Below, piece after piece: positions 3,058-23,430 of a DNA stretch of 64,000 nt. Every line of letters begins with the position of its first letter. Position 1 is the stretch's first letter. A program made the translations under genes and the position numbers. The stretch lies in the sequence record NZ_CP120537.1; one strand, written 5' to 3'. The DNA is from a plasmid. Under the pieces are notes generated by a model. That model had not been told where the DNA came from and did no database searches. It saw only the letters and a program-made list of their open reading frames with translations.

Positions 3058-3441
3058 ATGCAAATTCCTATTTTCGAGAGTCTAGTTGCCTGTGGTTTTC
3101 CCAGTCCCGCTCAAGACTACGTCGAACGTCGTTTATCGCTCGATGCTGAACTTATTCGCTATCCTGAAAGCACCTATTTTCTTCGTGCTTCAGGGGATTC
3201 GATGAAGGATGCGGGGATTTTTGACGGTGACTTATTAGTCGTTGAAAGTCACCTTACTGCCAGTCATGGGGAAATTGTAGTCGCCGAATACAATGGTGAA
3301 TTCACCTGTAAGTACCTGCAAATCACACCGACTAAAGCGCTTATTCCCGCTAACAGCCAATTTCCCTCTATCCCCATCAATGACGATACGGACGTGCAAA
3401 TTTTCGGTGTCGTTCGTTATGCCGTGCATACCTGTCGGTGA
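3058..3441 (+). CDS. umuD: UmuD/RumA/MucA-family SOS mutagenesis protein (LexA-like S24 peptidase).
   Basis: Has the '[11 protein letters not shown]' Ser-Lys dyad region; 127 aa; LexA box upstream; immediately followed by umuC. Confidence 0.85.
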
Positions 3442-3446
3442 AAGAT

Positions 3447-3672
3447 ATGTTTGCGCTCATCGATGTTAATTCCATGTACACCGCCTGTGAATCTGTCTTT
3501 AGGCCTGATTTAAAAGGAAAGCCAATTATTTGCCTTTCGAATAACGATGGGTGCGTCATTGCGCGTTCAGCTGAAGCGAAACCTTATATCCGCATGGGAG
3601 CGCCTTATTTTGAAATCAAACAGATAATCAAACAAAAGCAAGTAGTTGTATTTTCTTCAAATTATCCACTTA
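3447..3672 (+). pseudogene. umuC: 5' fragment of a umuC/rumB-like Y-family polymerase gene, truncated by an insertion.
   Basis: '[45 protein letters not shown]...FSSNYPL' matches the UmuC N-terminus, then diverges after ~3672 and stops. Confidence 0.8.
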
Positions 3673-4223
3673 CAGTTGGGAAATACTTTAGACATCACAT
3701 GTTGTAATGTTTCAGGTTGTATAAATTAGACGTCGAGATGAGGGGCGGTTACAATTTTTACTATTGGTTAAGAAATATCTTGAAAAAGTAGATGTATGAA
3801 CGCGTAACCCCCTGGGGGAAGGCTTAGCAGTGTGAATAACGGATGATTTAGGTGTTAATGTGATTGAACAAAATAGGTCGTTTCCAGATGACTTCGGCTT
3901 TGACTATTGTCTTATGTGGATTAGTACGGAGAAATATCCCTCATTTATAAGTAGGCCACACCCTGACAGTGGCGAGGTCATCCTAGTCTGGACTCAACCT
4001 GTCAAATTCAAATCACGATGCAATTAGGTCCGACAGGTTGCTCTAACTCACCTCTGCCCCTAAGTGTGTTGTGAGCGTTTAAATACATTTCACCAAAGCA
4101 CCATTTGACTTACTTTTTGTAATACCAGTAATTTGTCTACACAAACGGGTGACTTAACTTTCAGAATTTAAGACACAAGATGTTGTTCTTGGTATCATAA
4201 AAAAAATAAGAAAAAGGACTAAA

Positions 4224-5210
4224 TTGATGACTCAAATTAATAAAATGGCATTCAGCATAGGTAATGATGATATTGATTTATACCTTACGGCAATGAAGGC
4301 TAGTGAAATTTTGCAAGTTGCCACAGTTTCTCGAGTAGATGAGGATGCACAAAAGGGGTATCAGCGTCATTTGTCAGAACCACGAGCTAAGCTGATCGCG
4401 GAATATTTAGATTCAGGGAATCTAATCCCAGGGGCCGTAATTCTGAGTGCTCAAGAAAACTCAGTTATATCATTCAGTAATTCTGAATTATCGATGGAAC
4501 TGATTCCTAACTCTTTATTCGTTATTGATGGTCAGCATCGATTATATGGCGCTCATTTGGCAGAGCAAGATATTGAACTACCCGTGTGTATTTTTAAAGG
4601 TTTAGAACACACTAACGAAGTTCAATACTTTATAGATATAAACTCTAACCAGAAAGGCGTGCCTAAAACACTTCGTCTTGAGTTGTTAAAGTTTTTGGCT
4701 GAAGAGGACTCGCTCGATGCTGTTAGAGCCCGATTATTCGATGAGCTTGGAAATGAGCCTGATTCTCCCCTTTACGGAAAACTCAGTGCAACCTCTAGTT
4801 CTAGAGGTAAAATCTCGCATGTTCCATTTCAAGCAGCCTTAGACCCTATATTGAAAGTTCATCCATTATCTAGCTTGGCTTACGATGATAAAAAACGTCT
4901 ATTATCAAACTATACCTCCGCTGTACAAGGTGTTCTTGAAAGCACATTAGGGAGCAGCGAAAAGCTAACTACAGCAGCATATTTTGAAGCTGTATTTAGC
5001 ATCTTTGGACAAGTTTGCGGCCTTTCAATGATGTATTCAAAAAGCTACTCTGCCTCCGCACTAAAGGAAGTCTTAGAAGGTTTAAAACCATTCAACTTTG
5101 CTATTCATACAGGCACAAACCGTGATGCTATCAAGAAAATGAGTGATGAAATGCAAGAGCTAATTGAAATTCATAGCCACAAACTTGGCTCGGTTCAAGA
5201 TTTGTTTTAA
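4224..5210 (+). CDS. DGQHR-domain protein (DndB-like, ParB/Srx-fold), 328 aa.
   Basis: Motifs 'AQKGYQRHL' and 'VIDGQHRLYGAHLAE'; TTG start with an RBS. Confidence 0.75.
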   Translation: MMTQINKMAFSIGNDDIDLYLTAMKASEILQVATVSRVDEDAQKGYQRHLSEPRAKLIAEYLDSGNLIPGAVILSAQENSVISFSNSELSMELIPNSLFVIDGQHRLYGAHLAEQDIELPVCIFKGLEHTNEVQYFIDINSNQKGVPKTLRLELLKFLAEEDSLDAVRARLFDELGNEPDSPLYGKLSATSSSRGKISHVPFQAALDPILKVHPLSSLAYDDKKRLLSNYTSAVQGVLESTLGSSEKLTTAAYFEAVFSIFGQVCGLSMMYSKSYSASALKEVLEGLKPFNFAIHTGTNRDAIKKMSDEMQELIEIHSHKLGSVQDLF

Positions 5211-5212
5211 TC

Positions 5213-6097
5213 ATGATCAGTTCTGAAATATCAAAGGAAGTATTAGGCAGGCTTACTTCACTGGGATTCCAAAGAAGTGATAAGCCATCAAGTTATTCGA
5301 TGGCTAATAGCTTCAAAAAAGCCCTAGTTAGCTCTATTGTCGATATAGATGTTCAAGTGATCAACTCAAGCCGCCTTGAGGTTACCATGCCGAAGAGTGA
5401 CTATCTAAATGCAATTCTAACGGACTTTCACTTTGGAAAAGTTCGTGTAGAAAACCAAATTAAACACTTAACTGAACAGGTTAATGGTGATCTACAAGCT
5501 GCATGGTGTGTTGTTACAACTTATTATGCTTGCTACTTCATGTGCAATGAGATTTCAAGGATTGCAGGAAAATTCATAACCAACCTGACAGAAGAAGATC
5601 AAACCCGATTATTAAGTGCAGCTCAAGCAGGTACATCATCGATGTTTAACATTGATGGCCCAAGTAGCTTTGCTGTAATGGCTTCTCAAGGTAATAATTT
5701 TAATGAAATTAAACTAGATATCATTAAAACGGGAGCTAGACCTCATCAAGTCGCTTGGACAAATGTAAGTAGCCTAATCAATCCTATAAAAGTATCGGAT
5801 AAACACAATACAGCATGTCAACTGCTAAAGGATATTGTATCTTCATCTAATGACAGGTGGGCTTTACCTAGCGCAATTAGAAATGAGTGGAACTACAGTG
5901 CACCTAGTCTTTATGGAGATTCTGGTACTGATATTGGAAAGAATTTTTTATCCCTTATGAAGCAAGGGTCTTCAGTTAAGTGGGCTTCAAAAATAGGTAT
6001 TCAACCCCATGAAAATAACCGTGTTGCTGCGTTAGCATATGTATATGATTGCTTAAGTGGTGCGTATCAGTTGATCGATGGGCGCTTAAACAGTTGA
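5213..6097 (+). CDS. Hypothetical protein, 294 aa, partner of the DGQHR protein; no recognisable domain.
   Basis: Starts 3 nt after the DGQHR gene stop; the two are co-inserted. Confidence 0.7.
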   Translation: MISSEISKEVLGRLTSLGFQRSDKPSSYSMANSFKKALVSSIVDIDVQVINSSRLEVTMPKSDYLNAILTDFHFGKVRVENQIKHLTEQVNGDLQAAWCVVTTYYACYFMCNEISRIAGKFITNLTEEDQTRLLSAAQAGTSSMFNIDGPSSFAVMASQGNNFNEIKLDIIKTGARPHQVAWTNVSSLINPIKVSDKHNTACQLLKDIVSSSNDRWALPSAIRNEWNYSAPSLYGDSGTDIGKNFLSLMKQGSSVKWASKIGIQPHENNRVAALAYVYDCLSGAYQLIDGRLNS

Positions 6098-6501
6098 AGC
6101 AAACCAATATTGGCCATTGAGCGGTTCAGTAGTTTTGAATACCCTATCAGTGAGCACCATCATCAAAGCGAGTGAAATTTCCATACTTTATCTAATTCAT
6201 GTTTTTCTAAATTAGCTAAAATGCAACTCAGAAATGTCCAGAAGTGAGTTGTGTGGTGTCGAGTGGAGATTGTACGATTAAGCCCCTAAGTAATTAGTCC
6301 GTCAGTCTCCCTCGGTAATCAAATTAGTACATCTTAGCGATCAAATTGGTAAAAAATTAGACATGTAGATGAATGCCCACCTTAAAAAATAGACAGCGGG
6401 TTGGGCAGGGGGATTTTTCTGGTGTTAGACGCCAGCAACCCATGCGGCAGAATGGTTGCTCACTTACTCGCCTATTTTTAGCGGGAATTCTTAGCCAACT
6501 G

Positions 6502-7554
6502 TACCCGCTTTATGCCGATTTTAGTAACCGGTTTATGGCGGTAGTCGCTCAAATTGTGCCTCAAATTGAGGTTTACAGTATTGACGAATGTTTTTGTAAC
6601 CTGACAGGCATGGATACGTTGTATTCCTGGCATGAGCTTGGCCATAAATTAAAAGAGGATGTATTCCGGTGTGCTCACTTGCCTGTAGGAGTGGGGATTT
6701 CCAGTACCAAAACGCTAGCTAAACTCGCAAATCACGCCGCCAAAACATGGAAAAAAACAGGTGGAGTTGTCGATTTAAGTGCGCCCAGTCGTCAGAAAAA
6801 ACTCATGGCACTCGTGCCAGTAGGGGATGTTTGGGGAATTGGCCGTAAACTGGCAAAACGCTTAAATCAAAGTGGGATAGAAACTGCCTTGGATTTAAGT
6901 CGGCTGCCAACGTCCCAGGCGCGTAGACTGTATTCCGTCGTTTTAGAGCGAACGGTACGAGAGTTGAACGGGGAGTCCTGTCTTCAGCTGGAAGAAATCG
7001 CACCCGCCAAGCAACAAATTATTTGCTCTCGTTCGTTTGGCCATAAAGTCATGGACTACGAGTTAGTTCGCCAATCAGTGTGCGCATTTGCCGAACGTGC
7101 AGCAGAAAAACTACGTGAAGAAAAACAGTATTGTCGGTTAGTCACATTGTGGGTACAGAGTAGCCACTTTTCCCATCATGACCCGTACTATTATCGACAA
7201 GAAACCCAAGCCTTGGTTTATCCTACCCAAGATACGCGCGAGATTATTCAGGCGGCTGTCGCTTTGTTTGACCGACTTTGGCTTCCGAATGTGAAATACA
7301 GTAAAAGTGGGATATTGCTCAGTGAGTTTACCCCTTCAGGGCAAGTGCAACTGAATTTGTTTGAAAGTGGCCATAGTTTTCGTAAAAGTGGTGAGTTAAT
7401 GCGGACAATTGACCGGATTAATCGAGGAAAAGGCGCTATCTGGTTTGCAGGCCAGGGAATACAATCGCAATCCGCTTTATGGAAAATGAAGCAGCAATTT
7501 CTATCACCCCGCTGGACAACTCAATTGTCGGATATTCCCATCGTAAAATGCTAA
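6502..7554 (+). pseudogene. umuC: 3' portion of the umuC/rumB-like gene, downstream of the insertion.
   Basis: '...YADFSNRFMAVVAQIVPQIEVYSIDECFCNLTG...TKTLAKLANHAAK...' is collinear with the rest of UmuC. The ORF-track N-terminus (6373-6501) is insertion sequence read in frame. Confidence 0.8.
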
Positions 7555-7876
7555 TCATCAAGTGATGCTTTTTTAAACAGCTCTGATATTCATTCATTAA
7601 TCAAACCATTATCCTTGTTATTAACAGGGCTATTTCAAGTTATCCACTGATTTTGTGGATACGCCCATTTTGAGTTTTGGGGCAACGGCTTTATTTTGGC
7701 GTTGAGCCAGTATTAAGCCGAACGCCGGATTGACCCCATTTACACACAGTTGGCGCAGGTTCCCCGTACACTCTCGTTCTCGCGCCTGTTTGGGGCGCGC
7801 TCACTGGCTCGCCAAATGTGGAAAATGGGGACAACCGGCTTGAAAGGTCAACCGCTGCGCCTTTTACCGTTTTCAA

Positions 7877-8287
7877 CGTGGCGCAAAGGGCAGGGGTGCA
7901 GCTCCCTGCGGGACCGCCCCTGGTTCACTGCTTAGCTGCGCTAAGCGTTAATGGCGACTTGCCGTTCGCTTCTCTCGCTGCAAGTCGGGTGCTGCCATTT
8001 TCATCACCTGTGTGATTAATCTTTCATCGAGCCCCTCCGCTTGGCCTAAAACATAGCCTCATCTCGTCATACAGCAAGCGTAAAGTGCACTCCACCAAAA
8101 TTCTTGTCGCTGCGCTTTCCAACAATTTTGTCTCCGCCCTTGCTTCCTTCCTCGTCTCGGCTATGTACGGCCTTTGCAGCGGAGGAACTCGACGAAAGAA
8201 ATCATTAATACAAAGGAGGATTAAAAAATGTCATCACATCAAAACCTTGCAGCTCCAGAATCTAACGAAAGAAGGGTTAAAACCCCA
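7877..8287 (+). repeat. Copy A of a ~400-bp direct repeat with an internal palindrome GCAGCTCCC-TGC-GGGAGCTGC. Frpo/ssi-like single-strand promoter candidate.
   Basis: ~85-90% identical to 14547-14946; both sit immediately upstream of leading-region genes and extend into their first codons. Confidence 0.6.
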
Positions 8288-8518
8288 CTGACGCATGAGC
8301 AGAAAGCGGATTTATTGCATTACATTGCGCCATTAACACGGTTATTGGAGTTATTCGAGGGGGGTATTTCACCGGAGTTATACGACGAAGAAATCACGCT
8401 GCACAGTGATGCGTTCGATTCCAACAGTATTTTTATGAAAGACGGCTATCCGATTGGCTTTAGTGACAATTTAAACAACATGTTCTATCTGCGTCCTGAA
8501 CTGATTCAGGCTTCTTAG
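8228..8518 (+). CDS. Hypothetical leading-region protein, 96 aa.
   Basis: ORF immediately after repeat copy A; N-terminus 'M..QNLAA.ESNER' is shared with the ardB-like gene because of the repeat. Confidence 0.5.
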   Translation: MSSHQNLAAPESNERRVKTPLTHEQKADLLHYIAPLTRLLELFEGGISPELYDEEITLHSDAFDSNSIFMKDGYPIGFSDNLNNMFYLRPELIQAS

Positions 8519-8582
8519 GTACTAAGGGAGTTCATGAGCCTCCCTTAGCAAAGACACATTAAAAACAATAGAGGTATCAATT

Positions 8583-10583
8583 ATGTCTACATTAGAAACT
8601 ATCATTAACCCGAAACAACGTAAAGCGAAAAAAGGCACAAAATCCGCACAAGCCGACGCAATTTATCAGGCGTTGGACAGCATGGAAGCGCATGTATTGC
8701 CGTTATCGGTATTGGTACAGAGTGAACTCAATGTCCGTAAACGCCCAGTCGATGAAAAAGCCTTGTCAGAACTGGCAGACAGTATTCAAGCGGTCGGGGT
8801 GTTACAAAACTTGGTGGTTTACCCGATGGACAATGACGTCTACGGGGTTGCAGCGGGTCAACGTCGTTTACTGGCGTTACAACAATTGGTGACAAAAGGG
8901 CATTTAGCGTCGAGTTTCCCTGTGCCTGTCAAAGTGGTTTCAGAGTCCGATGCGCTGATTATTTCCCTGACGGAGAACAGCCAACGTGAAGCCATGCATC
9001 CAGCCGACCAACTTCATGCGTTTATCGAGCTACAAAAAACAGGAAAAAATGCGTCTGAAATCGGTGACTTATTAGGGTTTAGCACTCACCACGTGAAAAA
9101 ATGTCTGCGTTTAGCAAACATGGCGCCCGAGCTATTAGCCGAATTGGATGCGGACAATATCACCCTAGACCAGCTGCAAGCGTTAGCCGGAACCCCTGAC
9201 CATGACCGCCAAGTCATGGTGTGGAACAATGCAATAGGTTGGAAAAAAGAGCCACGTTACTTACGAGAAGCGGTCGAAGAAACCAAAACCCCTGTCGAAA
9301 ATAATCGATTGGTGAAGTTTGTTGGGTTGGATGCCTACGAGCAAGCAGGGGGAACCCTTGAAATTGACCTCTTTACCGAAGCCGGATTTATTGAAAATGC
9401 CCCATTATTAGAAAAATTAGCACTCGATAAACTCACTGTCTGTGCGGAACTGTTAGCGGATATTGAGGGTTGGCAGTTCGGTATTGCACGTTTAGAGCGT
9501 CCGAGTTTTTACGGTAATGACGGGGAAACCTTGTCTATTAGTCATGCACCCGAGGCGGTCATTTCCCCTGAATTTGCGGATTTACTGGCTGAATTGCGTG
9601 CTCGTGAAACAGATTTACGTCAGCAATCATGGGAAACGAATGATGAAAATGAACAAGCTGACCTTTGCCAAGCCGTGGCAGACTGCGAAAAGCAAATCGA
9701 AGACATTAAAGATCGTACCAAAAATCAGGCGTGGACAGCCGATGGAAAAGCAACAAAAGGCGTAGTGGTCTACCTTGACCGTGATGGAGAACCCTGTGTC
9801 ATCCGTGGCGTCATTGACTTAGCACAGCAAGAGTCACAGTGCAGTGAAGTGGAAAGCGAAACTGAAAGTGTGAGTGAGCAATCAACGACTCTAGTTGAGA
9901 CGGTTTCTACCTACAGCGCAGCGTTGTGCAAAAGTTTGTCCTCAGAGCGCACCTTAGCGGTTCAAGCGGCATTAACACAGCACCCGAACGTGGCACTGGC
10001 GATTTTGGTTCATGATGCGTGCATTCAGGTGTTTGGTTCAGGGTATGCCAAAACCGCGTTTAACATTAAGTTTTCATGTACTCAGGAGGAGTTACTCAAA
10101 AATGCCCCGACCGCCCAAGACAGCGAAGCATTGCAATTAATCAATACGCAATTTGAGTCATGGTCAGCCCGTTTCCCCGAAGGGTGGCAATCCGATTTTT
10201 CATGGTTGTTGTCATGGGAGCAAGCGGATTTAGTCGCATTACTGGCATTTTGTTCCGCGCAAACCCTAAGTGAAGTGAACCATCATGCTCCGCACGATAA
10301 CACGTTAGCTAAAGCCTTGCGTCCAATTGAACAGGTGATTGCTTTTGATTTTCGCCAGTGGTGGCAGCCAACCAAAGCCAACTTCTTTGGGCGTATAAGT
10401 AAAGACCAAATCAGCGATTGTTTAGCCGAGGCTGGCGCATCAGATAAAGCCCTTGAAGCCGTCAAAATGAAAAAAGGGGATGCCGCTGAGTTAGCTGAAA
10501 ATACCCTTAAAGAGTCGCATTGGTTGCCGAGCTGTTTTCTCGATGCAAACGCTGACTCTCACCACACCGATAACGCGCAATAA
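8583..10583 (+). CDS. Large ParB-like nuclease-domain protein, 666 aa.
   Basis: N-terminal '...VYGVAAGQRRLLALQQL...' ParB/Srx motif; this size class is typical of conjugative-plasmid leading regions. Confidence 0.7.
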   Translation: MSTLETIINPKQRKAKKGTKSAQADAIYQALDSMEAHVLPLSVLVQSELNVRKRPVDEKALSELADSIQAVGVLQNLVVYPMDNDVYGVAAGQRRLLALQQLVTKGHLASSFPVPVKVVSESDALIISLTENSQREAMHPADQLHAFIELQKTGKNASEIGDLLGFSTHHVKKCLRLANMAPELLAELDADNITLDQLQALAGTPDHDRQVMVWNNAIGWKKEPRYLREAVEETKTPVENNRLVKFVGLDAYEQAGGTLEIDLFTEAGFIENAPLLEKLALDKLTVCAELLADIEGWQFGIARLERPSFYGNDGETLSISHAPEAVISPEFADLLAELRARETDLRQQSWETNDENEQADLCQAVADCEKQIEDIKDRTKNQAWTADGKATKGVVVYLDRDGEPCVIRGVIDLAQQESQCSEVESETESVSEQSTTLVETVSTYSAALCKSLSSERTLAVQAALTQHPNVALAILVHDACIQVFGSGYAKTAFNIKFSCTQEELLKNAPTAQDSEALQLINTQFESWSARFPEGWQSDFSWLLSWEQADLVALLAFCSAQTLSEVNHHAPHDNTLAKALRPIEQVIAFDFRQWWQPTKANFFGRISKDQISDCLAEAGASDKALEAVKMKKGDAAELAENTLKESHWLPSCFLDANADSHHTDNAQ

Positions 10584-10624
10584 TCAACATGGAGACACTG
10601 CCCGAAAGGGCAGTGTGAATAATC

Positions 10625-11347
10625 ATGACAACTATTCCAAACCATTTAGCCCTTGTGCCTTTTAATGACCGTCAATATGCCGCTGCAAAAGCCATCCTTT
10701 TTGTCGAAGATAAAATGCAAAAAGGGCAATACCAAAAACGATTTCCCTATGCGAGCGCGTTAATTCGCATTTTTACGGGGAATAAAGGGTCAATAACCGC
10801 AAAAGATTTGCACTATACATTGGTGTTATCTTTCGATGATAAACGTGAAATGCCGTCAAAAAATCGCTATCTTGCCGCCCTTGATACGTTTATTCAGTCT
10901 CGTGGTTATATTTGTCCGTTGCCGTTATGTGATCATCATGTGCGAGATTTTTTTCCTGAGCTGGATTACCGCGACCGTGAACGGCAGGGGCGTAAAATTC
11001 AGTCTCAAGTCCAAGTTGTGAGCCGTGCCCGACAAAAAGCCCAAATAAAAGCGCAGCAACAGTATCAAAATCGATTAGCTCAAGCTGAAATTGAGTTAGC
11101 CTTTATTACCCCCAGTGAGTTTAAATCGTGGTACAACCGGTTTAATCATGATGGGATTGAAGAGTATGATTTGATTGAATTGCTTGTAAACTGGACGACG
11201 CGATTTAACAATTTAAACTTGCGAAAATACCTTGATTTTGCCCCGTTGTGGTCGGCGCTCTTGGATTTCAATGACGATATCGATACCCGATCATACGGTG
11301 AGCAATTACTGGATAATTATGCCATTCCCAATAAATTAATCGGTTAA
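10625..11347 (+). CDS. Hypothetical leading-region protein, 240 aa.
   Basis: ORF with RBS; no recognised motif. Confidence 0.55.
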   Translation: MTTIPNHLALVPFNDRQYAAAKAILFVEDKMQKGQYQKRFPYASALIRIFTGNKGSITAKDLHYTLVLSFDDKREMPSKNRYLAALDTFIQSRGYICPLPLCDHHVRDFFPELDYRDRERQGRKIQSQVQVVSRARQKAQIKAQQQYQNRLAQAEIELAFITPSEFKSWYNRFNHDGIEEYDLIELLVNWTTRFNNLNLRKYLDFAPLWSALLDFNDDIDTRSYGEQLLDNYAIPNKLIG

Positions 11348-11351
11348 AAGG

Positions 11352-11627
11352 GTGTTGACGATGAATGAATGGAATGTGGTTTTACTCGAAACTGAAGACA
11401 GTTTGGTGCTAATGATGCGCGGTGAGCACACAAAAGAAACGGTCGTTAATTCAGCAATTGCCGCGAATGAAATTTCACAGAGTGACCGCGAAACGTGGTT
11501 AGCCTGTGAAGATATCAACGTGGGCTATTACAAGGCGGTGCCTAGAGAAGGGTATGCCACCTATTATTATCCTGTCAGTCAGGACGTTAAAGGGGCGTTT
11601 TTAGCAACCAGTCTTGTGCTATTTTAA
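11352..11627 (+). CDS. Hypothetical protein, 91 aa.
   Basis: ORF, tightly spaced after the previous gene. Confidence 0.45.
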   Translation: MLTMNEWNVVLLETEDSLVLMMRGEHTKETVVNSAIAANEISQSDRETWLACEDINVGYYKAVPREGYATYYYPVSQDVKGAFLATSLVLF

Positions 11628-11876
11628 GGTTGAGAGCCAATTAGTGAGTTGATGATGCAATTAAAAAGCAAACAAACACAATGTGTTCATTGTTATTACA
11701 ATGGCACCTTTTTATCTGCTGCATAATACTTCGGGTCAGGTGGGTGTTAATGATGCCTTTAATGGCGAGATGACGGATAACAGTACACAGTTGGATGGTA
11801 TGCGATTAACCTCCCTGAAAACTGTCTATTGTGGGGAGTGTCATCGACCTTTATGAACCGTTGAAGAACGAAAGCA

Positions 11877-11912
11877 ATAAAGGGCTGTTCGGGTAAACCC
11901 GAACAGCCCTTT
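11877..11912 (+). terminator. Stem-loop AAGGGCTGTTCGGG-TAAA-CCCGAACAGCCCTT followed by a T-rich tract.
   Basis: Perfect 14-bp stem, read directly. Confidence 0.5.
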
Positions 11913-12565
11913 ATCTCTCAAAAAACGAGGATAACCCGCTAGTCTTTGCGTTTGAGATCCGTGGGGTTTGTTAAAAAAAATGAGATTTTACTGAGGTTGC
12001 GATTGCGTATCGTTATTTTTATTTGTAAAAACAATGAGATGAAGATTTTTGACAAAAATTTAAATCAAAATTCATTTATCAAAAAAATACAATAACCCCT
12101 TATGGGTTCCTACGGCAGCTCGACTTCTTCGAGCTGTCGCCTACACTTCAACGCCATTCGTAAAACGAATGGGTTTCCGCAGAGCCGCAAGCGTCTCTGT
12201 CCTTCGGATAGCAAGCGAAACCTAACTGCACGGCATTTCGTGCTTCGCACGGCCGTTAAAGACGCCACGCGTTGCGTGTCGGCCGATTGCCTCCTCACCC
12301 GACGGTTATTTTCTTACTATCAGCCCATTCGCTAGGGCTATTGATTACGCCCTTAAGCTCAAGAACTTGCAAGGGTTCGCTTCGCCGCGTTGCGCCCCTG
12401 CAAAACCTTTCCCTTGAGGGCTTCATCGCCCTTGCCGCGACTGAACTGACAGTAAGATGAATTAACACTTTCAAAGAGAACTACGAGGCCATCGGTAAAC
12501 GTCAACACCGCCACGCCAAAACCTCCAGAAAGATGAGTTAAAAGCCAAAAACAAGGAGTATCAAC

Positions 12566-12817
12566 ATGAATTATCAAATTTTTATTGCGGAAACCCATAA
12601 GAAAAATGTGACAGGGCAAACGGATGACGTTTATCACTTCAATTCCATTGCTGAATTCTTCACTTTTCTGAAAAAAACGAAATTCGCGGAAAAAATGAAC
12701 ATGAATTACCAATATGCCTTAACCGATGGAACAAAAAACACCGATTTAACTTACCGCGAAATTGAAAGCGCCAACCACCTTAAACCGTTTAAAAAACAGG
12801 TTCGCCAATACCGTTAA
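12566..12817 (+). CDS. Hypothetical protein, 83 aa.
   Basis: ORF with RBS 'AAGGAG'. Confidence 0.45.
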   Translation: MNYQIFIAETHKKNVTGQTDDVYHFNSIAEFFTFLKKTKFAEKMNMNYQYALTDGTKNTDLTYREIESANHLKPFKKQVRQYR

Positions 12818-12913
12818 AGCGACCTATTGAATAGCGCGAAATCGTAACGCGCTATTCAATATCGAGCCAGTTCGATATTGAACCAACCACTAAATCATAA
12901 AAGGAGAAACAGT

Positions 12914-13252
12914 ATGTATCACGCATTAGAGCAGTACGAAACAGACAGTTACCAAGAAACCCAAAGCGCGGAAATGATGTATTGGATAGGACGTGAACAA
13001 GCGGCTAAAACTGCCCCGACAGAAATCACCTTAATGCAATTTATGGATGCATTATCCGTTATGCCCCCGTTGGATTGGCAAGGCAATAACAATACTGAGT
13101 CCTTTAAATTGCAAGAGATGTTTTTGGGGAACGTGACTGACATTTTTGTCAAAGTGGACGGGCGCTATTTCACGTTTAGGGATGTATCAACGTTATCTCA
13201 CGCGCAAATTATTTCGCGTGTGCGTTGTGCTGGATTACTAGCGCAACAATGA
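12914..13252 (+). CDS. Hypothetical protein; internal Met start of the 124-aa ORF-track entry 12878-13252.
   Basis: RBS 'AAGGAGAAACAGT' before ATG 12914. Confidence 0.45.
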   Translation: MYHALEQYETDSYQETQSAEMMYWIGREQAAKTAPTEITLMQFMDALSVMPPLDWQGNNNTESFKLQEMFLGNVTDIFVKVDGRYFTFRDVSTLSHAQIISRVRCAGLLAQQ

Positions 13253-13285
13253 AAAAAGCAGGCTTGCGCCTGCTTAATCCGTGCC

Positions 13286-13585
13286 TTGAGCGACTTTAGC
13301 GTAGGAACTCAAGGTATTCACCCAATCAAAGGAGTAAATCCGATGAATACAAATATCATGGCATACGCTGCCAACCCTGTAAAGCCCCAAATGCCCGTTG
13401 CGTCAAAACGTCGGGTCATGCGTCACGATATCGCGATTAGTGATATTGAGCCTACCTATCGGGCAATGGCGCGACATATCGACAAACAGCTTAAACGCAA
13501 ACAGCCCGTTCGCATCCCTGCAATGAATAACCATTGTTTGGGGCAACTCTTGCGCTGTTTGGAACTGCGTAAATCGTGGATTTAA
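13286..13585 (+). CDS. Hypothetical protein; start is more likely the internal Met at ~13343.
   Basis: ORF only. Confidence 0.4.
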   Translation: MSDFSVGTQGIHPIKGVNPMNTNIMAYAANPVKPQMPVASKRRVMRHDIAISDIEPTYRAMARHIDKQLKRKQPVRIPAMNNHCLGQLLRCLELRKSWI

Positions 13586-13629
13586 GTTAACTCACTGCCC
13601 CTTTTCAGGGGCAGTTTTGGAGCGTCGAT

Positions 13630-14436
13630 ATGTCACAATTGAGTTTTTTTGATGTAGATTTAAGCCAACCTGTAAAAACCCCCAGTCCTATCATTTCAGG
13701 CTCACCCAATAAGATAGACACAAAGACAGACAAAACAGTCGAAAAAGCAACCCTAACAACTAGCACCAAGTCAAAGCGAGATTTTCACACCGAGTTTATT
13801 CAATTGTTTAATCAAACGGCACGTTATCACAGTCGCTTAGACGTGTTTCGGGATTTTATTCATGTTGCCGCGATTTCATTAGAAAACAGCGTGAAACAGT
13901 GTCCTGAGTTGGAGCAAACTTACTTTAACGTGATTGCGCGTTATGAAAGAGCCGATTTAGATGTGTTCGCCAAATTAATGGCAATTTGTGTTAATGCCTT
14001 AGACCAGCAAGCCACCGATTTTTTAGGGGCGGTGTTTATGTCCCTTGAGTTAGGCGAAGGGGCATGGGGGCAATTTTTTACCCCATTTCATATCAGCCAG
14101 CTAATGGCAAATCTTATCATCGGTGATTGCAGCACTATAATTGAAAAAAATGGCTATATCAGCGTGTCCGAGCCAACGTGCGGGGCGGGCGGAATGGTGA
14201 TTGCCTGTGCCAATTCTGTGTTACAACAAGGTTACAACCCACAAATGCAAATGATCGCAGTGTGTACCGATATTGATGAGGTTGCCGCCCGAATGTGCTA
14301 CGTCCAATTGGCATTATTGGGAATCCCTGCCATTGTGAATATTGGTAACAGTTTAACGCTGGACGTTCGTCAAACGCTATATACCCCGATGTTAATGTTA
14401 AATTCATTTCGCTTTAAATCCTTTTTAACAGCCTAA
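13630..14436 (+). CDS. SAM-dependent DNA methyltransferase (N6-adenine type), orphan.
   Basis: Motif 'VSEPTCGAGGMVIACAN' resembles the HsdM / gamma-class FxGxG motif; no adjacent restriction gene. Confidence 0.65.
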   Translation: MSQLSFFDVDLSQPVKTPSPIISGSPNKIDTKTDKTVEKATLTTSTKSKRDFHTEFIQLFNQTARYHSRLDVFRDFIHVAAISLENSVKQCPELEQTYFNVIARYERADLDVFAKLMAICVNALDQQATDFLGAVFMSLELGEGAWGQFFTPFHISQLMANLIIGDCSTIIEKNGYISVSEPTCGAGGMVIACANSVLQQGYNPQMQMIAVCTDIDEVAARMCYVQLALLGIPAIVNIGNSLTLDVRQTLYTPMLMLNSFRFKSFLTA

Positions 14437-14546
14437 TTCACGTTATTTCAAGGGGATTTATTCCCCTTTTTTGCGCATCGGCTTAATCCTGGCATCGAGC
14501 CAGGCTCAATCCGACAACGTCAACCCCTGCGCCTTTTTACGCTGAC

Positions 14547-14946
14547 GCGTGGCGCAAAGGACAGGGATGCAAGCTCCCTGCGGGAGCTGCCCCTGATAAA
14601 CCGCTTAACGTTGTTAAGCTCAAAGGACGCCTTGCGGTTCGATTCTCTCGCCGCAAGTCGGGTTGTGTCATTTTCAGCTACTGTGTTGTTAATCTTTCGC
14701 CAAGCCCCTCCGCTCGGGCTTAAACATAGACTCAACTCGTCATCCAGCAAGCGTAAAGTGCACTCCAGCAAAATTCTTGTCGCTGCGCTTTCCAACAATT
14801 TTGCTTCCGCCCTTGCTTCCTTCCTCGTTTCGACTATGTACGGCCTTTGCAGCGAAGGAACTCAACGAAAGAAATCATTAACCCAAAGGAGACACTAAAA
14901 TGACTCAACAACAAAACCTTGCAGCTCAAGAATCTAACGAAAGAAA
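14547..14946 (+). repeat. Copy B of the ~400-bp Frpo/ssi-like direct repeat.
   Basis: Aligned by eye to 7877-8287; internal palindrome conserved. Confidence 0.6.
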
Positions 14947-15379
14947 TGGAAAAGACCAAATCGTTATCACGACAATTGAGGTGAAGAATGCTCAAGCTCG
15001 TTTAAAATTTTTACCTTCAAAATTAGGGCGGTACTGTATTGCCTTTGAAAATGCAATCTATAACTGGATGACTCGGAACGCCGTAGCCTATAACGGCGGT
15101 TATTGGGATTTTTATACGTTGTCGAATGGCGGTTTTTATCTGCAACCGACAAAAGGCTATATGCTCACTTCACCGAATGGATTTATGGACGATGTAAGTG
15201 CTCAAGAAGCAGGAATTATTGTCACTTTAATGATGTTAAGTCATTTTTCATTTGTGACCTATGAAAAAGAGCATCACGAAGATTGTGAGCGTATTTCTGC
15301 TTATTTTCATCAATTACGGGATTTTATTTTCACATTATCCCCTGAATCACAAACCAAAATATTAAACGCCATTGATTAA
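14900..15379 (+). CDS. ardB: ArdB/KlcA-family antirestriction protein (YfjX-like).
   Basis: 'AYNGGYWDFYTLSNGGFYLQP...SAQEAGIIVTLMMLSH...YFHQLRDFIFTLSPE...ILNAID' closely parallels E. coli YfjX and the KlcA family. Confidence 0.75.
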   Translation: MTQQQNLAAQESNERNGKDQIVITTIEVKNAQARLKFLPSKLGRYCIAFENAIYNWMTRNAVAYNGGYWDFYTLSNGGFYLQPTKGYMLTSPNGFMDDVSAQEAGIIVTLMMLSHFSFVTYEKEHHEDCERISAYFHQLRDFIFTLSPESQTKILNAID

Positions 15380-15449: not shown

Positions 15450-16322
15450 ATGAATATGGAACAGCAAACATTATTATCGGTTGGTCAAGTGGTTTACACT
15501 AATTTATATAATCTCGGCAAGGGGGTTATTGTTAATATTCATGGCGAGCAAAAACCACAAAGTATAAAGAATATGTATAATGTTATGGTCACAGGGGGCA
15601 ATGCGGAATTTGATATCGTATTCTTTAATGGGAATAAATCAAATCGTTTACCGGAAAGTATTTTCCACGGCGTACAATGGAAAATTGAAAATGAAACGGT
15701 TGAACAAGAAACCATTAAATCATTAATTGAAAAAGCTGAGGCACATGAACAAGCAGAAAAAGCCGAAGAAGAACGAAAGATAAATGAATTTAAACAAGGT
15801 GTCGAATTCCAAAAAAACAACACAGAATATTCACACTTAACACAGATAACCTCTAATTCAGATAAGAAAGTCAAAATAGTCGGTAAAAATATCCGTGCTG
15901 AGTTAAAAAAACATTTTCCAAAAACAAAATTTTCAGTACGTAAACAGTATTACAGTTCTTATCATGTAAATTGGACAGATGGTCCGACAGTGGAGGAAGT
16001 CGAATCTATAATCAATAAATATGAAACATCGCGTTTTGATAGTTATACCGATTATCATTATAGTGAAACATCACCTTTTAACGTAGTTTATGGTGGTGCT
16101 GATTATGTTTTTACACATCGGGATTACAGTGATGAAATAATCGCATTGGCTATCAAATCATTGATTGATAAATATGGCGAGTCTTATGAGTTTGATACCG
16201 CGCTAATGACGGTTGAAAATTATCATCAAGGAATATTATACAAAATAGGACGAGAACAAATTATTGGGAATGATGGGATAGGTGGAGAAATTGGTCGAGT
16301 ATTAAGAAAAAACAGTTATTAA
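15450..16322 (+). CDS. Hypothetical AT-rich leading-region protein, 290 aa.
   Basis: ORF; low GC relative to neighbours. Confidence 0.55.
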   Translation: MNMEQQTLLSVGQVVYTNLYNLGKGVIVNIHGEQKPQSIKNMYNVMVTGGNAEFDIVFFNGNKSNRLPESIFHGVQWKIENETVEQETIKSLIEKAEAHEQAEKAEEERKINEFKQGVEFQKNNTEYSHLTQITSNSDKKVKIVGKNIRAELKKHFPKTKFSVRKQYYSSYHVNWTDGPTVEEVESIINKYETSRFDSYTDYHYSETSPFNVVYGGADYVFTHRDYSDEIIALAIKSLIDKYGESYEFDTALMTVENYHQGILYKIGREQIIGNDGIGGEIGRVLRKNSY

Positions 16323-16429
16323 AGAAAGCGCGCCTAAAGGCGCGTTTCTCGTTTTAATACTAAACCACATGCATTACTTAATATTAAACGTGATTATAGC
16401 GTTAAAAATAGAAAGTAAAAGGAGTAAGT

Positions 16430-16876
16430 TTAGTTATTTTTTTTAATGTTAAGATAAATGTGATAGACCTCAAGCGCATATTGATTTCTTTTTTGTTCTT
16501 GAGCCTCGGATTTTTTTAACCCTGCATTATAAGCCCCCACACCTTTCCAAATATCCCCTTGTATGCGAATAAATTTCGCGAGATAAAATGCACCCGTATA
16601 AATATTCATGCATGGGTCTTGCCTTAAATGATTTTCTGTAATGCCATACTGGGCTAATTCATTAAAATTTTGTGAATGAATTTGCATTAATCCAATCGCG
16701 TATCGTGTCGATGATGCTTGATTAATTGCATTCGGTTGGAATGAACTTTCACGAAAGGCAACCGCGCGTAATAAATCAGGGTCAATTTGATAATCTTTTC
16801 CTGCTTTATCATAGCAATCAAACGAAAATGAAAAAGGTGAGAAAATTAACGCAATGAGAATACAGATCATTCGCAT
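16430..16876 (-). CDS. Lytic transglycosylase (SLT domain), like F orf169 / R1 gene 19.
   Basis: 'AVAFRESSFQPNAINQ...AIGLMQI...' SLT catalytic region; signal peptide; adjacent to oriT. Confidence 0.8.
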   Translation of the reverse strand: MRMICILIALIFSPFSFSFDCYDKAGKDYQIDPDLLRAVAFRESSFQPNAINQASSTRYAIGLMQIHSQNFNELAQYGITENHLRQDPCMNIYTGAFYLAKFIRIQGDIWKGVGAYNAGLKKSEAQEQKRNQYALEVYHIYLNIKKNN

Positions 16877-22938: not shown

Positions 22939-23430
22939 ATGGAAAAGTGGTATTTATTATATTGTAAACGTGACCAGGTTTTACGCGCGATTGAGCACCT
23001 TGAGCGTCAAGGGGTGACTGTACATAACCCAACCTACAAAACTGAGAAAATGGTGAGGAATCGCCGTAAGAAAGTGATGGAGCCGTTATTTCCCAATTAT
23101 TTATTTGTGAAGTTTGATTATGAAGTCATTCACTTTTCGACGATTGGCTCGACACGTGGCGTGAACTACTTTGTCCGCTTTGGTCAGAACCCCGTGGTTG
23201 TACCTAATGAAGTGATTGCGACACTGGTTGTACCTGATTTCGTGAAAGAGATGAGTGATAACTTACCGCAAAAAGGGGATGAAGTCGTCATTACGGACGG
23301 TATTTTTGTGGGTATTCAAGCGATTTATAACGAACCCGATGGGGAAGCACGTTCGGTATTACTTCTTAAAATCCTCAACAAAGAAGTTCCCAAAGTCGTC
23401 GATAACCGCAGCTTTGAAACCATTAAATAA
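22939..23430 (+). CDS. rfaH: RfaH-family transcription antiterminator paralog (NusG-like NGN + KOW).
   Basis: 163 aa, collinear with E. coli RfaH ('WYLLYCKR...LERQ...EPLFPNYLFV.FD.EVIH...TRGV..FVRFG..P..VP..VI..L...GD.V.IT.G.F.G.QAI..EPDGEARS.LLL..LNKE'). Confidence 0.85.
   Translation: MEKWYLLYCKRDQVLRAIEHLERQGVTVHNPTYKTEKMVRNRRKKVMEPLFPNYLFVKFDYEVIHFSTIGSTRGVNYFVRFGQNPVVVPNEVIATLVVPDFVKEMSDNLPQKGDEVVITDGIFVGIQAIYNEPDGEARSVLLLKILNKEVPKVVDNRSFETIK

Follow-up and report, generated by a model that had tools for sequence, protein, structure and literature searches.

Diverged Frpo-family hairpins at the heads of leading-region gene blocks in an F-like Providencia plasmid, probable promoters of the transferred single strand

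Promoters of class 1 that act from single-stranded DNA (ssDNA) were reportedly described by Masai and Arai in 1997 as the Frpo elements of plasmid F. The concept is by now established, with Frpo1 and Frpo2 of F, ssi1-3 of ColIb, elements of classes 1-3 in pESBL and thousands of homologues detected by BLAST, the published surveys having used BLAST with five reference sequences. In F, Frpo1 (ssiD) and Frpo2 (ssp1a/ssp1b) are class-1 ssDNA promoters (Couturier et al. 2023, PMC9849209), and in pESBL and F hairpins of class 2 (ssp2) precede klcA (ardB) and ardA (Wen et al. 2025, PMC12672017; Shaw et al. 2026, PMC13478746). Class-1 elements are characterized by an imperfect stem-loop of ~330 nt in the single-stranded form, with a -35 and a -10 box restored in the stem and mismatches at the -10, and by inactivity as duplex. 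Leading-region promoters of this kind set the time at which anti-restriction, anti-SOS and other anti-defence genes are expressed, and they are now viewed as a determinant of the establishment of resistance plasmids in new hosts. Here we analyse a stretch of 64,000 nucleotides from sequence record NZ_CP120537.1 (hereafter the window), which is identical to positions 1-64000 of NZ_CP120543.1, the 74.8-kb plasmid pPROV046-NR1 of Providencia sp. PROV046, an F-like plasmid with the leading-region gene set. An earlier note, made from the letters alone, had singled out two direct repeats in this window and read them as Frpo/ssi-like elements on the transferred strand. The nick site, the predicted folds, a profile match to F Frpo1 and Frpo2, compensatory base changes and an asymmetry between the strands all support that reading; however, the repeats (copy A, the first, and copy C, the second) are not the only two, because a third related element, B, lies between them. 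With a probability of roughly 0.6, we consider A, B and C to be Frpo-family promoters whose ssDNA form would drive the early, transient expression of three leading-region gene blocks; possibly they also serve as priming sites.

The two repeats are present as ~400-bp direct copies on the + strand with the ~85-90% identity attributed to them, except that they begin ~30 nt earlier than had been thought. Aligned over their whole length, A and C agree at 362 of 426 positions (85%) and in the core hairpin at 89.6%; unrelated flanks aligned likewise give 57-60%. The repeat search returned a segment of 300 nt (7916-8215 and 14589-14888, 85%) and another of 49 nt (8225-8273 and 14897-14945, 88%), and a profile search of the 64-kb window found no further copy besides A, B and C. 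As the earlier note had recognized, and as the alignment bears out, both copies run into the open reading frame (ORF) behind them, where they take in the Shine-Dalgarno sequence (SD), the ATG and ~15 codons (MSSHQNLAAPESNER / MTQQQNLAAQESNER) with the shared N-terminus M..QNLAA.ESNER. The exact palindrome GCAGCTCCC-TGC-GGGAGCTGC that it had seen in each copy is in neither. The site in copy A (7898-7918) reads GCAGCTCCC-TGC-GGGACCGCC, which leaves only TCCC/GGGA and scattered pairs, and the one in copy C (14569-14590) reads GCAAGCTCCC-TGC-GGGAGCTGC with a one-base bulge. Nor is the palindrome the promoter hairpin; it is a small accessory stem-loop (H2, see below), distinct from the large hairpin.

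The direction of transfer follows from an F-type nic motif on the minus strand (Table 1), in which we placed the nick by comparison with F, whose nick position is established. This orientation makes the minus strand the transferred strand (T-strand), and thus the template for the + strand leading genes, just as the earlier note had predicted. Within the leading region, the elements are encountered at 2-9 kb, and their downstream genes are all on the + strand. Beginning at the start of the window, the + strand carries parAB, umuD, an interrupted umuC, copy A, a 96-aa ORF, a ParB-like gene and psiA, and then small ORFs, an N6-methylase gene, copy C, an ArdB/KlcA gene and an LPD29/LPD30 gene; after these come an SLT gene on the minus strand, a gap, traM and the F-type tra operon. 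A, B and C each lie directly upstream of one of three co-directional leading-region blocks, each of which thus has a hairpin of its own. Block A (8228-11627) comprises the 96-aa ORF, the ParB-like gene, PsiA and an 88-aa ORF, and block B (12566-14436) comprises ORFs of 83, 112 and 80 aa and the N6-methylase, with element B occupying the 940-nt gap ahead of the 83-aa ORF (12566). Pfam confirms a ParB_N domain in the gene after the 96-aa ORF and gives no match for the 96-aa ORF itself; the gene behind copy C proves to be ardB-like, as had been proposed, by its PF03230 match. All copies in the window and in the Providencia loci examined sit in the leading region in the same orientation.

At the level of pairwise similarity, megablast and blastn searches of PLSDB with the repeat return Providencia only (50 PLSDB records of this type, plus one GTDB species representative) and thus connect it directly with neither F nor ColIb. 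In the opposite direction, F ssiD, Frpo2 and ColIb ssi give only chance matches of 11-20 nt to the window in blastn, and an Rfam scan of the whole window yields no match at gathering thresholds. Sensitive blastn aligns the repeat at 69-72% over ~140 nt with candidates 5-7 of the low-certainty 'Frpo*' group (Samuel et al. 2024, Nature, PMC11541004, Supplementary Table 2), a type of which over 1,100 enterobacterial plasmids carry full-length copies. We built a family alignment from eight Providencia copies together with copies from Klebsiella, Serratia, Enterobacter and Yersinia, and derived from it both a consensus stem and an nhmmer profile. The profile matches F Frpo1 (E=1e-12) and Frpo2 (E=1.7e-9) over profile positions 11-300, which is near full length; it also matches element B (12533-12423, E=2.4e-4) and the B orthologues in loci L010, L003 and L009 (E=3e-17 to 7e-61), and it does not match ssp2 (F 6440-6740 of locus L002). 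The consensus stem has 41 pairs, 17 of which have changed on both sides, and 91% of its cells are paired. Shuffled alignments give 9.2 +/- 1.9 such both-sided changes, with 0 of 500 reaching 17, and slid controls give 5-9; the pairing of the stem is preserved over ~30% sequence divergence. The profile matches to F Frpo1 and Frpo2 and the compensated stem place A and C in the Frpo family. That the repeats are true, diverged members of this family is well supported, and we hold it with much more confidence than the promoter function.

The structure also shows a preference for the strand that is transferred. In every element the minus strand is more stable than the plus strand by 8-12 kcal/mol, as it likewise is in F Frpo1, Frpo2 and ssp2, and the consensus fold of twelve homologues reaches -20.8 kcal/mol on the T-strand versus -7.7 kcal/mol on the plus strand, which is weaker because many stem positions that are G.T on the minus strand become C.A in the mRNA. 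The cells of the consensus stem hold 68 G.T on the T-strand versus 9 A.C, a count that is biased because the stem itself was predicted on the T-strand. When the 64 kb were scanned independently of homology, seven of the eight most structured minus-strand windows fell inside 7.6-14.7 kb, the main hairpins were 10-12 kcal/mol better on the minus strand, and A and B had the largest minus-over-plus advantage. Alifold gave no usable consensus on a MAFFT alignment with DNA parameters or without G.U. All in all, we regard the strand asymmetry as moderate evidence for a structure on the T-strand.

Folding of the minus strand as ssDNA, which the earlier note had suggested as a check, yields a ~300-nt hairpin in each repeat; the presentation of promoter boxes is, however, not canonical, and the TTGACG box is lost. 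Compared with shuffles, the fold of 7850-8230 (copy A) has z=-4.8 and that of 14520-14902 (copy C) z=-3.9, and in copy C the long hairpin competes with a local stem-loop, H4 (14631-14657). The core of copy A is homologous to the part of F Frpo2 that, when we folded the published Frpo-acrIIA4 construct, was still hairpin-forming. At its base, the 5' strand of the stem is complementary to codons ~13 to 1, the ATG and the SD, and the 3' strand carries a diverged decoy of this sequence. That the SD, the ATG and ~13 codons form the base of the hairpin accounts for the extension of the repeat into the ORFs and for the N-terminus common to two unrelated proteins. We rejected a protein-level signal as the reason for the latter: the same block of DNA is 5' untranslated region in element B and F and coding sequence in A, C and the Klebsiella-type relatives, which argues for constraint at the level of DNA. 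Different leading-region ORFs in Klebsiella-type plasmids start with MNTQN. A further feature of the minus-strand hairpin is that the first ~33 nt of its 5' arm (TTCTTTCGTCGAGTTCCTCCGCTGCAAAGG, 8170-8202) recur ~70 nt outward, inside the ORF (TTCTTTCGTTAGATTCTGGAGCTGCAAGG, 8240-8273); this duplication of inner and outer arm is seen also in F (L002 ~13900-14010; CACCATCACCTTTTTGAG / CCCCCATCATCTTTTGAG) and in element B, and it suggests growth of the stem by nested duplication, or alternative pairing.

Table 1. Coordinates in the window of the repeat units, hairpins, candidate promoters, transfer origin and adjoining genes (MFE, minimum free energy; a slash in a sequence marks the nick).
Feature	Coordinates	Strand	Basis
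Repeat copy A, whole unit	7848..8273	minus (functional strand)	85% identical to copy C; nhmmer family profile 8274-7949, E=6.5e-98
Repeat copy C, whole unit	14523..14945	minus	alignment to copy A; nhmmer 14946-14622, E=5e-102
Element B	12100..12565	minus	hairpin 12274-12516; MFE ladder
Copy A long imperfect hairpin, 305 nt	7963..8267	minus	ssDNA MFE ladder, dG -67.8 kcal/mol, outer pair 8267/7963
Copy A core (upper) hairpin	8003..8204	minus	minus -41.8 vs plus -33.4 kcal/mol; alignment to F and Klebsiella-type relatives
Copy C long hairpin, 294 nt	14641..14934	minus	MFE ladder, dG -48.5 kcal/mol
Copy A accessory stem-loops	H1 7857-7884; H2 7891-7922; H3 7930-7946 (GCTTAGC-TGC-GCTAAGC)	minus	sequence
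Copy C accessory stem-loops	H1 14529-14555; H2 14562-14595; H3 14603-14619 (GCTTAAC-GTT-GTTAAGC)	minus	sequence
Candidate ssDNA-form promoter, copy A	TTGCTG 8077-8072, 16-nt spacer, TATGTT 8055-8050	minus, 3' arm	inferred; best sigma-70-like match on the arm
Candidate ssDNA-form promoter, copy C	TTGCTG 14750-14745, 16 nt, TATGTT 14728-14723	minus, 3' arm	inferred
oriT nic region, TTTGCGTGGGGTGT/GATG	17020-17003	minus	compared with F oriT TTTGCGTGGGGTGT/GGTG, equivalent F strand
Predicted nick	between 17007 and 17006	minus	F nic comparison
96-aa ORF, first gene of block A	8228..8518	+	ORF list and RefSeq annotation
Intrinsic-terminator-like site, after the methylase gene and just upstream of copy C	14452..14473	+	terminator scan: GGGGATTTATTCCC then CTTTTTTG
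ArdB/KlcA-type antirestriction gene, after copy C	14900..15379	+	Pfam PF03230, E=2.3e-19
LPD29/LPD30 gene	15456-16322	+	Pfam PF18847, PF18850

The model that we favor would work as follows. During conjugation, the minus strand would enter the recipient 5' end first, from ~17006 toward lower coordinates, delivering the elements in the order C, B, A. As long as it is single-stranded, each unit would adopt its imperfect hairpin of ~300 nt, flanked on the 3' side by three small stem-loops rich in GC. The sigma-70 RNA polymerase of the host, on the analogy of F Frpo1/2 and ColIb ssi1-3, would then engage the pseudo-duplex stem and transcribe the entering strand toward the downstream genes, ahead of complementary-strand synthesis. 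The genes expressed early would be ardB and LPD29 in block C, the small ORFs and the methylase in block B, and the 96-aa ORF, the ParB-like gene and psiA in block A. Complementary-strand synthesis would abolish the hairpin and thereby turn the promoter off. Polymerase binding, the site of the start, early induction and any role in priming or as a roadblock are steps that we infer.

Where such a promoter might lie in A and C can be narrowed down. The non-template strand would be the 3' arm, read from apex to base, on which TTGCTG-16-TATGTT is the candidate; the predicted starts would fall at ~8170 (A) and ~14843 (C), leaving leaders of ~58 nt. Of 15 Providencia copies, 11 carry this motif unchanged and two more carry it with one base different (TTGCGG or TATGCT), TATGTT as such being present in 13, and the candidate -10 ends in a conserved internal loop of the 3' arm. 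At the homologous positions of the F 3' arm stand TGGAC(T/A), a spacer of 17 nt (with a 3-nt bulge in addition in Frpo2) and CTGT(C/A)T at the conserved internal loop. The double-stranded DNA (dsDNA) counterpart is TTGCTT-16-TATGTA (8140-8167 in A, 14813-14840 in C), and since the duplex template thus faces TATGTA without the critical final T, the promoter would be specific for ssDNA. The facing bases of the 5' arm vary, so that the duplex form is TATGTA, TATGCA or TATGAC; judged from sequence, constancy of TATGTT opposite a varying arm is the pattern one would expect of an ssDNA-specific -10. The promoter scan found no sigma-70-type site on the + strand upstream of the 96-aa ORF or ardB. Another candidate, ATGACA-18-TATTAA in copy A, was dropped because it has no final T and is not conserved in copy C (GAGTCA).

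Several observations nevertheless weigh against the promoter model. First, the TTGAC box, which is conserved in B, F and the Serratia and Klebsiella-type relatives, is gone from A and C: where the profile alignment has GGTTTTGACGTTTTG in F, B and the Klebsiella type, A and C have GGTTTTG, which looks like the outcome of an 8-nt deletion between two GTTTTG repeats, GTTTTG(ACGTTTTG). Second, the candidate hexamers are weak, with 7 of 12 matches, below the threshold of the promoter scan, and a comparably weak match on the + strand of element B, TTGCCG-15-TAAGAT, indicates that such matches have little proof value. Third, in the MFE folds of A and C the spacer between -35 and -10 is no duplex, being a purine-rich 15x14 internal loop. 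Fourth, the Klebsiella-type relatives have TACGAC, again with no final T, at the homologous -10 position. Finally, a strand-neutral count of single mismatches gives G.T 12 versus A.C 3, a weak bias that is absent within the Providencia subset.

As for where the promoter of the family resides, we gave up the idea that TTGACG on the 5' arm is the sole -35, with transcription toward the loop. No conserved -10 is found 16-18 nt past TTGACG in the F, Serratia, insect-metagenome, Klebsiella-type or Providencia copies. In the work of Samuel et al. 2024 (PMC11541004), the Frpo-acrIIA4 construct protects F against Cas9 only from the leading T-strand; it corresponds to F 8356-8646 (locus L002) and has a truncated 3' arm, which leaves the TTGACG region without a pairing partner. 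The missing -10 and a truncated construct that works argue together that the active promoter of the family is in the upper hairpin. A bolder version of the model, which we put forward only tentatively and regard as doubtful, is that the hairpin of this subfamily acts as a two-level switch, transcriptional and translational, located where the gene begins. On the incoming single strand, transcription would be initiated within the hairpin, beyond its apex, and yield a short leader with its SD free, whereas later read-through transcripts derived from the duplex would carry the anti-SD/anti-AUG arm and be translationally silent. If this were true, a DNA structure would impose a common N-terminus (M..QNLAA.ESNER, or MNTQN.. 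in the Klebsiella type) on unrelated proteins, and throughout the Frpo family transcription would be driven from the upper hairpin instead of the conserved TTGACG box.

Among the alternatives, the one that survives best is that the hairpins serve mainly complementary-strand synthesis, either as priming signals or as roadblocks that delay duplex conversion in the manner of F ssp2; a promoter role would be compatible with it. Frpo RNA primes DNA synthesis in vitro (review PMC7690428), and at ssp2 conversion stalls where the stem ends, with UvrD being needed (bioRxiv 10.64898/2026.01.09.698686). Such a role would suit A and C in that they are without the TTGAC box and yet retain the stem by compensatory change. 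It would also suit the three small GC-rich stem-loops on the T-strand 3' side of the long hairpin, of which the palindrome is the middle one (H2) and which, in the roadblock version, would be the first obstacle for an arriving polymerase. In an alignment of ten Providencia copies, a G-C pair has changed to A-T in H3 and, in L009, a G-C pair to T-A in the outer stem of H2, while the accessory loops are free to vary; these pair-preserving changes beside variable loops argue that the small stem-loops are real conserved structures, and they stand on the side where complementary-strand synthesis would arrive. H2 is degraded in copy A. However, each element exactly heads a gene block with SD and ATG attached, for which a pure replication element would have no reason. 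Moreover, the sequences of A and C resemble Frpo1/2, on which early expression in vivo depends (PMC9849209), more than ssp2, which the family profile fails to match. A mainly replicative role thus seems to us unlikely.

The base of the stem could perceivably also act at the RNA level: the + strand copy in read-through mRNA would sequester the SD and the AUG, and the genes of established plasmids would not be translated. The basal stem does pair SD/ATG with an upstream decoy, as CATTTTT/GAAAATG in copy A and as a perfect 13-bp helix in the Klebsiella, Serratia and Yersinia plasmids (L005, L006, L008), where the start-codon region GTGTGTTCATCCT (T-strand) faces the 3'-arm decoy AGGATGAACACAC; in the Enterobacter plasmid (L007), codon 2 has changed from AAC to CAC together with the decoy. 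Watson-Crick pairs are, of course, equally open to mRNA. Yet it is the plus strand that folds worse, both in the single elements and in the consensus, the homologous basal stem of F contains neither SD nor ATG, so that the stem is independent of that role, and a terminator-like site stands ahead of copy C. We consider sequestration as the main function improbable. Improbable as well is that the repeats are ordinary duplicated dsDNA promoter-leaders, or relics in decay that recombination has spread, and lack any function specific to the single strand, for although the copies do recombine and some of them degenerate (see below), neither ORF has a sigma-70-like + strand site upstream, 17 pairs are compensated across the divergence of the family, and all copies share region and orientation with no other copy in the window. 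A mobile repeat resembling miniature inverted-repeat transposable elements or repetitive extragenic palindromes was rejected, every copy found being in the leading region, in the same orientation and joined to a gene start.

Element B (-91.6 kcal/mol for the fold of 12100-12570, z=-4.35) keeps GGCGGTGTTGACGTT, with TTGACG at 12505-12500 on the minus strand, and its 5' base, GGCGGTGTTGACGTTT, resembles GCCGCGGTTTTGACGTTTT of F and also the Serratia and insect-metagenome Frpo' of Samuel et al. The element at the B position in L003, L009 and L011 has an A/C-type apex between B-type bases, the B apex in this window and in L010 has 21 nt in common with F ssp2 (blastn), and in L009 ardB bears an A-type leader. 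The swapped apices and the A-type leader of ardB imply that the hairpins are modular and that the copies exchange parts. The copies of L004 are visibly degenerate. In the P. rettgeri KM4 plasmid (L003), a fourth, degenerate copy (L003d, 16425-16706), ~340 nt upstream of a relBE pair, is a deletion derivative in which the segment between two ACGAAAGA repeats (SD, ATG, first codons) is gone. At the 3' boundary of the repeat unit we note a second motif, GTTGAC(G/C)TT on the T-strand (7848-7856 and 14520-14528), which is a direct repeat of the 5' TTGACG box of the relatives and occurs likewise at the 3' ends of the elements in Klebsiella-type plasmids (L005-L008); it may be a recombination joint between modules. 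The + strand match of element B mentioned above (12440-12470) lies over the 5' arm, and judging by its sequence B may also have some conventional dsDNA promoter activity.

A few features of the neighborhood deserve mention. The umuC gene is split into an ORF at 3438-3707, which covers positions 1-70 of the IMS domain, and an ORF at 6373-7554, which covers position 45 to the end. The ~2.7-kb insert carries a DndB-like/DGQHR gene (4227-5210; PF14072, E=2e-10) and a 294-aa ORF (5213-6097) with no Pfam match; it may be a cassette for defence or anti-defence, inserted in the umu operon on the border of the leading region. In F-like plasmids, hok/sok (flm) sits between psiA and the next Frpo. The corresponding spot here (11627-12100) holds a 57-aa ORF (11683-11856), a strong hairpin followed by a T-run at ~11880-11915 and an AT-rich stretch, with no Rfam match and no Hok-like peptide; the interval 11851-12150 is among the most structured on both strands. 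Further downstream, a homologue of rfaH, the transcription antiterminator, is found within the tra operon (22939-23430), between a traB-like gene and traV.

With respect to what these elements mean for the field, they recur in a clinical F-like Providencia lineage of 50 records, in which BLAST missed them and profile and structure together recovered them. Canonical and box-less variants coexist on one plasmid, and hairpin modules are exchanged among the copies. Start codon and first codons in the hairpin base, considered along with a truncated Frpo-acrIIA4 that works, make the location of the promoter testable by mutation.

Finally, how do A and C compare with the elements described so far? 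With F Frpo1 and Frpo2 they share the ~300-nt imperfect hairpin with an A/T-rich palindromic apex, the blocks GC.GCAA(A/G)GG, with its bulge, and GT(G/T)CA(C/T)TT(T/C)AC, the conserved internal loop at the GGCT..GT position, and the presence of at least two copies per plasmid at the head of separate gene blocks. They differ from them in having no BLAST-level similarity, in the internal loop that takes the place of the -35 to -10 spacer, and in the genes downstream, since neither ssb nor psiB directly follows an element here. They are also without the GGTTTTGACGTT box and ~90 nt of basal stem, and the absence of the latter puts the SD and the ATG inside the hairpin base, whereas in F these are ~100 nt beyond. 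Class-2/ssp2 hairpins resemble copy C in heading an ardB/klcA-type antirestriction gene; they too are long T-strand hairpins, and a 3'-arm motif, CCCTTGCAT...GGCTAAGAT in F ssp2, has its like in CGCTTGCTG...GGCTATGTT here. However, A and C have no profile or BLAST similarity to them, the 21 nt of the element B apex being the only match. The closest published sequences are the 'Frpo*' candidates 5-7, a type widespread in plasmids of Klebsiella, Enterobacter, Salmonella and Serratia. In that type, too, SD and ATG come right after a TTAAT-like box and the first codons lie in the basal stem, the conserved blocks follow in the same order with ~70% identity over the core, and the stem is kept by compensatory changes. 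In contrast to the Providencia copies, it keeps TTGACG inside the first codons, where Providencia has TTGATG or TTGTTG, it has a near-perfect 13-bp stem over the start codon, and its 3' arm carries TACGAC instead of TATGTT. Taken together, the sequence comparisons indicate that A and C are a new, Providencia-restricted branch nearest to 'Frpo*', marked by the loss of the TTGAC box and by a gene start in the hairpin base. The known concept of promoters acting from the transferred strand is unchanged by them; its range is extended, and one open detail is sharpened.

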